Source: Octopus sinensis
Lineage: Eukaryota
Direction: 5' to 3'
Length of the DNA: 64,000 nucleotides
NCBI RefSeq assembly: GCF_006345805.1
Contig: NC_043012.1
Coordinates: 37,944,001-38,008,000 of the forward strand
Part shown: in pieces, positions 56,487 to 57,222 of the stretch
Layout of the letters: the number at the start of each line of letters is the position of its first letter
Numbering within the stretch: position 1 is the stretch's first letter
The notes under the pieces: model-generated
Told to the model about the DNA's origin: nothing
The model's input: the letters and a program-made list of their open reading frames with translations, nothing else
The model's database searches: none
Made by a program: the position numbers and the translations under genes

Positions 56487-56581
<95 letters not shown>

Positions 56582-56676
56582 AAGGCTTCCAAATAAGGAA
56601 GCGTAGTGCTAGAAACACAAAAGGGATAAATTCATGAAAGGAATGAAAACTAAAAGCATTTACCATCTCAGCTATA

Positions 56677-56752
56677 TCCCAGACCGAACGGTTTCTACCT
56701 CTTTTTAGCAAACACACAGAATATATTTGCCAGGCCAGGTTCTTCAGTGGGA
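56677..56752 (-). ncRNA. Canonical type I hammerhead ribozyme
   Basis: Minus strand: tccca CTGAAGA acct..(extended stem II tggcaaatatat/gtgtgtttgcta)..aggt a GAAA ccg tt cg GTC tggga. Stems I-III all pair; GUC triplet; predicted cut between 56682 and 56681. Confidence 0.85.
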
Positions 56753-56932
56753 AGCCTTCGTAATCCTAGACGCACAGACTGTTAGAAGCACATGTAGATC
56801 TAACGGTTTGTATATCTTAACAATTTCAAAACTCTTAACAATATATCTTAACAATTTCAGACCGTTAAGATATACAAACCGTTAGATCTACGTGTGCTTT
56901 TAACTGTCTGTGCGTCTAGGATTACGAAGGCT

Positions 56933-57008
56933 TCCCACGGAAGAACCTGGCCTGGCAAATATATTCTGTGTGTTTGATAAAAAGAGGTAGAAACCGTTCG
57001 GTCTGGGA
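56933..57008 (+). ncRNA. Inverted copy of the hammerhead with a core substitution (CGGAAGA, U4>G)
   Basis: tccca CGGAAGA acct...aggt a GAAA ccgttcg GTC tggga. Confidence 0.7.
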
Positions 57009-57222
57009 TATAGCTGAGATGGTAAATGCTTTTAGTTTTCATTCCTTTCATGAATTTATCCCTTTTGTGTTTCTAGCACTACGCTTCCTAATTTGGAAGC
57101 CTTTTATTATATTTCTATACGAAAAATATAAAGTCTAATGACTAACTCGTCTTTTGTGCTAGGCCACTGGTAATAATATTTATTTTACTACCCTATATTG
57201 ATTATGTTTATATATATATATA

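Follow-up and report, generated by a model that had tools for sequence, protein, structure and literature searches.

The window analysed here, a 64,000-nucleotide stretch of Octopus sinensis DNA (NC_043012.1, positions 37,944,001 to 38,008,000) within which all positions below are counted, carries two near-identical copies of a hammerhead ribozyme motif that face away from each other in a palindrome, one with an intact core and the other with a mutated core. How did such a pair arise, and does the contrast between its two copies serve a function? The evidence set out below makes it very probable that the insert consists of the 3' ends (pseudo-LTRs, pLTRs) of two 5'-truncated copies of a Penelope-like element (PLE), or of a non-autonomous derivative, set head to head within a run of (TA)n, and the two arms probably came in by one insertion event.

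The window consists of animal DNA in which (TA)n, (AAT)n and dispersed repeats abound. Host-gene exons lie on its plus strand at 12305-34832, including a 1758-codon low-complexity frame (29556-34832), and the gene may be KIAA2026/BRD10-like; three small frames of this gene gave no informative Pfam match, and a search with its open reading frame at 22458-23408 found nothing. About 4.7 kb of (AAT/GAT)n occupies 50000-54750, with a 76-bp piece in four copies (49669, 50214, 51877 and 53001), and this tract may be either an expansion or a weak spot of the assembly. At 36255-36486 we noticed a short and nearly perfect tandem array, whose 36-bp unit leaves the frame open.

Organization of the palindrome

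The arms of the inverted repeat (56581-56821 and 56864-57104) align without gap over 241 bp with six substitutions (235 of 241 positions complementary). The sequence-only reading that preceded this analysis had given the arms as 246 bp, which is about right, because pairing runs on past a 1-nt gap to 56574 and 57112. The whole insert measures 635 bp, and its arms stand head to head, the strand that carries the hammerhead pointing outward on either side. By alignment to the right arm, the left arm (56574-56834, minus strand) is the 5'-truncated 3' end of an element read outward; its outer end halts within a predicted intron and passes into (TA)n, and the tail is absent. The right arm with its tail (57208 being its last position, from 56864, plus strand), delimited by the alignment and by family coverage in sequencing contigs, is likewise 5'-truncated, reads outward and ends in (TA)n. 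The tail of about 96 nt (57113-57208, plus strand) is present on this arm only, as seen in the arm alignment, and the contigs place it in the family.

Between the arms lies a filler of 29 nt (56835-56863, plus strand), composed of two slip-back copies (56833-56842 and 56842-56859) and 4 nt; both copies repeat the inner end of the left arm in the same orientation. The sequence TCTTAACAAT occurs three times in the junction region (56815, 56833 and 56846) and an 18-mer occurs twice (56811 and 56842), in agreement with the earlier remark that the spacer repeats this sequence, and supporting a templated junction. Judged from its letters, the filler looks like what would remain if the 3' end had twice slipped back while being extended, a mechanism which we infer.

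A 6-bp hairpin is present at 57083-57100 (plus strand), slightly inward of the left arm's end point. The 5' strand of hammerhead stem I can also pair with the 3' side of this hairpin, and a pairing of 9 bp is possible between that strand and 57096-57104. A sigma-70 promoter scan, which is inapplicable to animal DNA, recovered merely the same hairpin and was discarded.

At least five of the six arm differences fall on the right arm, while the sixth (56793/56892) may belong to either arm, and four of the six are transversions. The one-sided load reaches a two-sided p of 0.06 for five out of five. Since the right arm departs from the family at no fewer than four sites in addition to its core mutation, the contrast between an intact and a mutant copy looks like one-sided decay rather than design. 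If the differences are real, arms 2.5% apart would correspond to a few million years on the scale of an O. vulgaris annotation, which gives 31 recently active Penelope-like families and sets a distance of 0.09 equal to 25 million years (PMC13282606).

The hammerhead motif

The left copy (56671-56755, minus strand) is a type I hammerhead with an intact core, identified by core match, folding and a descriptor scan and examined for variation in contigs. It reads in the order GCU-UCCCA, CUGAAGA, stem II, an extra A, GAAA, stem III, C17 and UGGGA-UAU-AGC, with C3 at 56747, A9 at 56741, the extra A at 56696, G12 at 56695 and the predicted cut after 56682. In stem I, 5 bp are followed by a 3-nt bulge and 3 further bp; stem II, 44 nt in total, is formed by ACCU/AGGU, an internal loop and an 11-bp distal hairpin with four G-U pairs; stem III, consisting of an A-U pair plus 2 bp with a 4-nt loop, sits inside the near-palindromic 10-mer ACCGUUCGGU at 56683-56692. 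The 5-bp stem I, the long stem II (put at about 45 nt before) and the GUC site of the sequence-only reading were thus all found. The two cores can be read directly as they had been described: the minus strand has CTGAAGA from 56747 onward, and the plus strand has CGGAAGA from 56938 onward, the mutated G being 56939. All parts of the type I core (CUGANGA, GAAA and UH at the three-way junction) are present in the left copy, and the right copy (56930-57014, plus strand) departs from it at U4. Hammerhead activity needs U4. The right copy, with U4G and a second lesion at 56977 that disrupts a G-C pair in the stem II hairpin, is predicted to be inactive.

A relaxed type I hammerhead descriptor gave two matches in the real window and none in 40 block-shuffled copies of the window used as control, indicating that the motif is not a product of chance. 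The label "canonical" that had been attached to it could not be kept. The pair 10.1-11.1 is A-U, where the canonical pair is G-C; one unpaired A (56696) separates stem II from G12, so that stem II is not joined directly to G12; stem III is minimal; and an Rfam scan of the window returned nothing at gathering score. When E values up to 10 were admitted, the 14 Rfam matches included no hammerhead family, only hairpin and chance matches.

As a monomer, the hammerhead fold lies 3.3 kcal/mol above the minimum-energy fold (-21.8 versus -25.1 kcal/mol), the pairing probability being about 0.29 for stem II and about 0.01 for stem III, and two copies of the 10-mer pair with each other at -11.2 kcal/mol. 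A short palindromic helix III that is unstable as a monomer is the mark of the dimeric hammerheads of PLEs. The unpaired base that such hammerheads carry between positions 9 and 10.1 is lacking here, and an unpaired base is found on the 3' side instead.

The expectation that a transcript of a single arm could cleave itself is therefore doubtful, because stem III hardly forms, the copies lie on opposite strands, and in published tests single motifs of metazoan Penelope hammerheads proved inactive or dependent on protein. Folding predicts that the ribozyme as a single copy cuts poorly, if at all, and, since the motifs sit on opposite strands, neither copy has a dimer partner in cis. Dimeric cleavage is the agreed mode in three further reports (PMC6765202, PMC7229834 and PMC6155905), and core variants of the hammerhead are discussed by Perreault et al. 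(PMC3088659). A literature search judged by titles and the beginnings of abstracts gave no direct report of an octopus hammerhead, and a search by titles gave none of an insertion before G12; the variant may well be in print already.

The folding of a read-through transcript into a long duplex, also proposed from the sequence, holds by construction, at about -433 kcal/mol; the computed values for the two strands are -433 and -436 kcal/mol. If the locus is transcribed, the RNA could serve as a substrate of ADAR or Dicer, as had also been suggested. This duplex of about 240 bp is what speaks for a co-opted locus, in which an active and a silenced ribozyme would make up a regulated RNA switch, or in which the hairpin would be a source of small RNA. 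We give this idea next to no probability, as the arms are only 2.5% apart, the end of the nearest large host open reading frame is about 22 kb off, and the mutant arm has decayed at sites outside the core as well. Having one intact and one mutant copy does not make the locus a switch; further decay is what sets the mutant arm apart.

A predicted start codon and retained intron

On the plus strand, an ATG (57019-57021) lies 15 nt past the predicted cleavage site at 57003 and directly before a predicted 5' splice site, and may be a start codon. It is followed by a predicted spliceosomal intron of 141 nt (57022-57162, plus strand), with GTAAAT, two CTAAY branch-like sites (57135 and 57142), a pyrimidine tract and TAG. 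Such signals are rare: ATGGTAA occurs 11 times in 128 kb (the window, both strands), two of them in the arms, and acceptor-plus-branch sites occur five times in the same 128 kb, one of them in the insert. As these criteria were chosen after the sequence had been seen, and no spliced joint is among the contig joints listed in four sequencing runs, the intron stands as a prediction. On its splice-like signals, the insert may carry a retained intron. After the predicted intron, the reading frame stops after 12 codons in the right-arm copy.

The insertion site

The insert is flanked by (TA)n-type target runs on the left (56376-56573) and on the right (57207-57294), both defined by repeat scan and alignment. 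Beyond them lie the two halves of an older, dispersed host repeat (55707-55898 and 57304-57544, plus strand), the second placed by alignment to intact copies in the window. In all four intact copies compared elsewhere in the window the two halves are contiguous, indicating that the host repeat was split at this site. The target is therefore a microsatellite within a split host repeat, with (TA)n on both sides, a kind of target described for endonuclease-bearing (EN+) PLEs. No target-site duplication is readable within (TA)n. A reversed second copy of the host repeat (55969-56425) is inserted in the same internal (TA)n run as the palindrome.

The whole region 55707-57544 is a case of nested insertion: the receiving sequence is the internal (TA)n of a dispersed repeat about 400 bp long, which has many copies in the window.

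The family in public sequencing runs

Part of the window was carried by 20 of the 24 sequencing runs listed, with at most 0.32 of its words in any run. Four runs were compared at 80% likeness, comprising 422, 56, 306 and 466 contigs, of which 76-100% were read in each; the runs may not be from the same animal, and contig depths were not added up to estimate copy number. None of the runs listed is recorded as RNA, and run X2, a possible RNA run, was left out of any reading of expression or editing. A multi-copy family was seen in the contigs of all four. Among the contigs listed, loose ends in three of the four runs show that the family runs on upstream of 56821, and these ends match 56822-56834 at 10 of 12 letters by eye. 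Because family sequence continues upstream of 56821, both arms are 5'-truncated. Downstream, coverage and loose ends indicate that the family also continues through the tail to the 3' end. In run X1, 11 records exit at 57119 into TATATA, near the end point of the left arm.

Variation within the motif was limited in kind. In each of the four runs, depth and contig counts agree wholly or almost wholly between the variants at 56685, 56688 and 56690, from which we infer that these variants are linked; in combination they change C-G to U-A and turn the 10-mer into a perfect palindrome, and this compensatory change of stem III may be one inherited event. N7 is variable in every one of the four runs. 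Of the variant rows in the motif, 12 were listed and two more lay outside the listing; no listed row falls on the 12 core positions (about 1.7 expected), which by itself is weak evidence of core conservation, and none touches the extra A. Three listed rows (56672, 56738 and 56752) disrupt stem pairs. The U4G variant is absent from the contigs listed in the four runs.

No listed contig bridges the junction in the four runs, which is not proof of absence, and the depth at 56905-56967 is zero in all four, with no listed contig favouring the right-arm alleles there. Together with the one-sidedness of the arm differences and the four transversions among six, this would agree with a sequencing or assembly artefact, either of the palindrome itself or of the differences on the right arm, G56939 among them. 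We regard this as highly improbable: a mirror image of the left flank would be expected from a fold-back read, yet on the right the host repeat carries on as it should, and the right arm has extra family sequence; moreover, no run holds more than 0.32 of the words, and the runs may not come from the same animal. An error confined to G56939 is unlikely too, though likelier than a false palindrome.

Four of the five listed joints are other head-to-head junctions of the family (56663/57036, 56741/57030, 56781/57103 and 56821/57152). Two alleles common to both arms (56650/57035 and 56656/57029) are minority alleles in each of the four runs, pointing to one source for both arms. One source would also follow if a single copy had inserted first and the second arm had been added later at the DNA level, by a fold-back template switch in replication or repair. 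That course would fit the shared minority alleles and the slip-back filler, and an error-prone polymerase on one arm could explain the unequal mutation loads. It is nevertheless improbable, given that head-to-head junctions recur in the family, that other family copies likewise terminate in (TA)n close to where the left arm does, and that each arm has family sequence absent from the other (56822-56834 on the left, the tail on the right).

Searches outside these sequencing runs were also made. The stem III motif pattern gave no match in metagenome and viral contigs and one in a Bacillus contig, and with a shorter core pattern 120 loci turned up in 18 of the 64 parts of the metagenome collection. 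Relatives were sought among these 121 pattern loci, and all were taken as chance matches because none aligned over more than 34 nt or had the downstream half.

Comparison with Penelope-like elements and retrozymes

The marks of the insert agree with those described for EN+ PLEs. Insertions of these elements show an inverted 5'-truncated copy beside the 5' end, a one-sided tail of 30-40 bp, (TA)n targets and retention of introns (Craig 2021, PMC8557442), and head-to-head is their most frequent arrangement, for which self-priming was proposed (Arkhipova 2013, PMC3846280). Members of this group (Penelope/Poseidon, Neptune, Nematis, Hydra and Naiad) share with the insert the truncation, the inverted head-to-head copy and the one-sided tail, the (TA)n target hiding target-site duplications, and the hammerhead in the terminal repeat; their retained intron and their ORF start inside the pLTR plus tail have predicted counterparts in the insert (PMC8557442, PMC3846280). 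The insert itself has an inverted 5'-truncated copy adjoining at the 5' end and a one-sided tail (57113-57208), the host repeat resumes beyond it, and it bears rare splice-like signals where retained introns are a PLE trait (PMC8557442). In contrast to these elements, it lacks the ORF body, and its tail is about 96 nt long instead of 30-40. Likewise, the predicted intron here comes after the hammerhead and the ATG, whereas in D. virilis the 5' side of helix I marks the end of the intron. The proposal of a Penelope-style inverted insertion is thus supported by the one-sided tail, the split host repeat and the other head-to-head junctions of the family. Among the observations against it, no reverse transcriptase (RT) or GIY-YIG sequence is attached to the insert, and the one-sided arm differences are unlike equal-age decay.

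Metazoan PLE hammerheads have a palindromic helix III, and the single motif is inactive (Cervera and De la Pena 2014, PMC4209133). In that report, pairs of opposite-strand motifs 100-700 bp apart are described from Schistosoma, like the pair found here; the Aedes rows are type I with 3 bp and a 4-nt palindromic loop, like helix III of the insert; and A10.1-U11.1 is seen in at least two rows (D. willistoni and Marsupenaeus). The extra-A layout AGAAA is present in one of 56 rows of its alignment. The insert differs from the hammerheads of that alignment in lacking the unpaired 9/10.1 base and the G10.1-C11.1 pair, and in a helix II of 44 nt with an internal loop. A search for the term Octopus in part of the supplement found no cephalopod row.

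A protein for comparison is that of PAc, a Poseidon element of Anolis, which nicks and extends both strands and prefers AT-rich DNA (Frangieh 2024, PMC11167929). RT starts at two internal sites in vitro, which define the tail, and the PAc hammerhead cuts only with protein and is dispensable for insertion in vitro (PMC11167929). The insert resembles PAc in its AT-rich target, in a putative start codon close to the hammerhead and, under the model given below, in nicking and extension of both strands with an outer and an inner RT start; the ORF of PAc starts in stem II, whereas the ATG of the insert is 15 nt past the predicted cut. The RT starts of PAc are at an AC-rich stem-loop, whereas the inner end of the insert is just past a GCTTCC/GGAAGC hairpin in the predicted intron (PMC11167929).

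Animal retrozymes are also type I, non-coding and related to pLTRs (PMC7229834; Li 2026, 10.64898/2026.07.22.740005), so that the family might be a non-LTR retrozyme, a tandem repeat spread through circular RNA, with the locus as a broken pair of units. The type I hammerhead, the small stem III and the lack of an ORF would fit, and retrozymes are known from a mollusc (PMC7229834) and have been proposed to derive from pLTRs. Still, this origin is very improbable. Retrozymes are direct tandem repeats of 170-400 nt, and the insert is inverted, truncated and not tandem (PMC7229834; 10.64898/2026.07.22.740005). The locus contains an inverted pair without any same-strand tandem unit, and the window contains no other copy; the unit would exceed about 375 nt, because upstream family sequence does not match the tail; and the intron-like segment and the one-sided tail are PLE traits.

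A model for the insertion

Taking the PLE insertion as the preferred reading, a GIY-YIG endonuclease would nick both strands of the (TA)n run, and each 3'-OH would prime reverse transcription of unspliced element RNA. One cDNA would begin at a distal start near 57208 and the other at an inner start near 57112-57119, a difference that would leave the tail on one side. Both cDNAs would halt early, 66-79 nt upstream of stem I, and would then be joined via the short slip-back copies. Self-priming, the published alternative to two primers, may have operated instead. In the parent element, the hammerhead would act on tandem same-strand copies, as a dimer through the palindromic stem III or with the help of protein. 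At the present locus, read-through of the plus strand would bring only the mutant motif in sense, and read-through of the minus strand would produce the complement first and the intact motif second. In all likelihood the locus is inert.

A more far-reaching version, to which we allow only a slender chance, is that the insert represents an undescribed octopus PLE family with an active, unusual hammerhead, an RT start in the intron, and one arm copied with more errors. In this version the hammerhead, marked by the A-U closing pair, the bulged A before G12 and the 44-nt two-part stem II, would cut 15 nt ahead of a start codon with a retained intron directly after it. If it were true, the asymmetry of the arms would be a trace of the way in which the two cDNAs are produced and linked.

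Other inserts and retroelement fragments in the window

An older head-to-head palindrome lies beside (TA)n at 27755-28058, with arms 82% alike and CUGAAGA cores at 27850 (minus strand) and 27968 (plus strand); the plus copy at 27968 has the usual PLE layout but AAAA in place of GAAA. A young complex insert lies between (TA)n runs at 43935-44474, with 125-bp inverted arms (43935-44059 and 44279-44403) that are 100% identical and a 56-bp direct repeat (44056-44111 and 44419-44474). Its plus strand contains a neat type I hammerhead at 44201-44242, with a U3-A8 covariant core (44207), a G-C stem II and a palindromic stem III. Neither insert has any sequence likeness to the palindrome at 56574-57208.

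A broken Penelope-like remnant was found at 45616-46955 on the plus strand, with an RT core and thumb interrupted by frameshifts, followed by GIY-YIG. The GIY-YIG match has an E value of 6.6e-4, below the Pfam cut-off, and two RT-bearing relatives were found at 32% identity. This remnant was considered as the parent and rejected, because it has no DNA in common with the insert.

Fragments of non-LTR retrotransposons are present at 47495-48745, 54724-55185 and 57994-58392, with 3306-3863 and 40496-40852 recognized by eye only. Two of the fragments gave RVT_1 and zf-RVT matches. For the LINE fragment at 54751-55182, the best match was in Octopus bimaculoides at 83% identity and the next match was at 59%.

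Implications

Pairs of opposite-strand hammerheads were already known in 2014 (PMC4209133), the PLE marks seen in the insert are in print as well, and the insert is likely to be an ordinary scar. As an ordinary Penelope scar it is of little importance. Three unrelated hammerhead-bearing inverted inserts in 64 kb indicate that such inserts are common in this genome, and octopods are therefore suited to counting where arms start and stop, by which two-primer and self-priming models could be compared. The hammerhead of the family is a natural variant. Octopods belong to an animal group known for heavy A-to-I editing, and hairpins of this kind, if transcribed, would be a source of double-stranded RNA.
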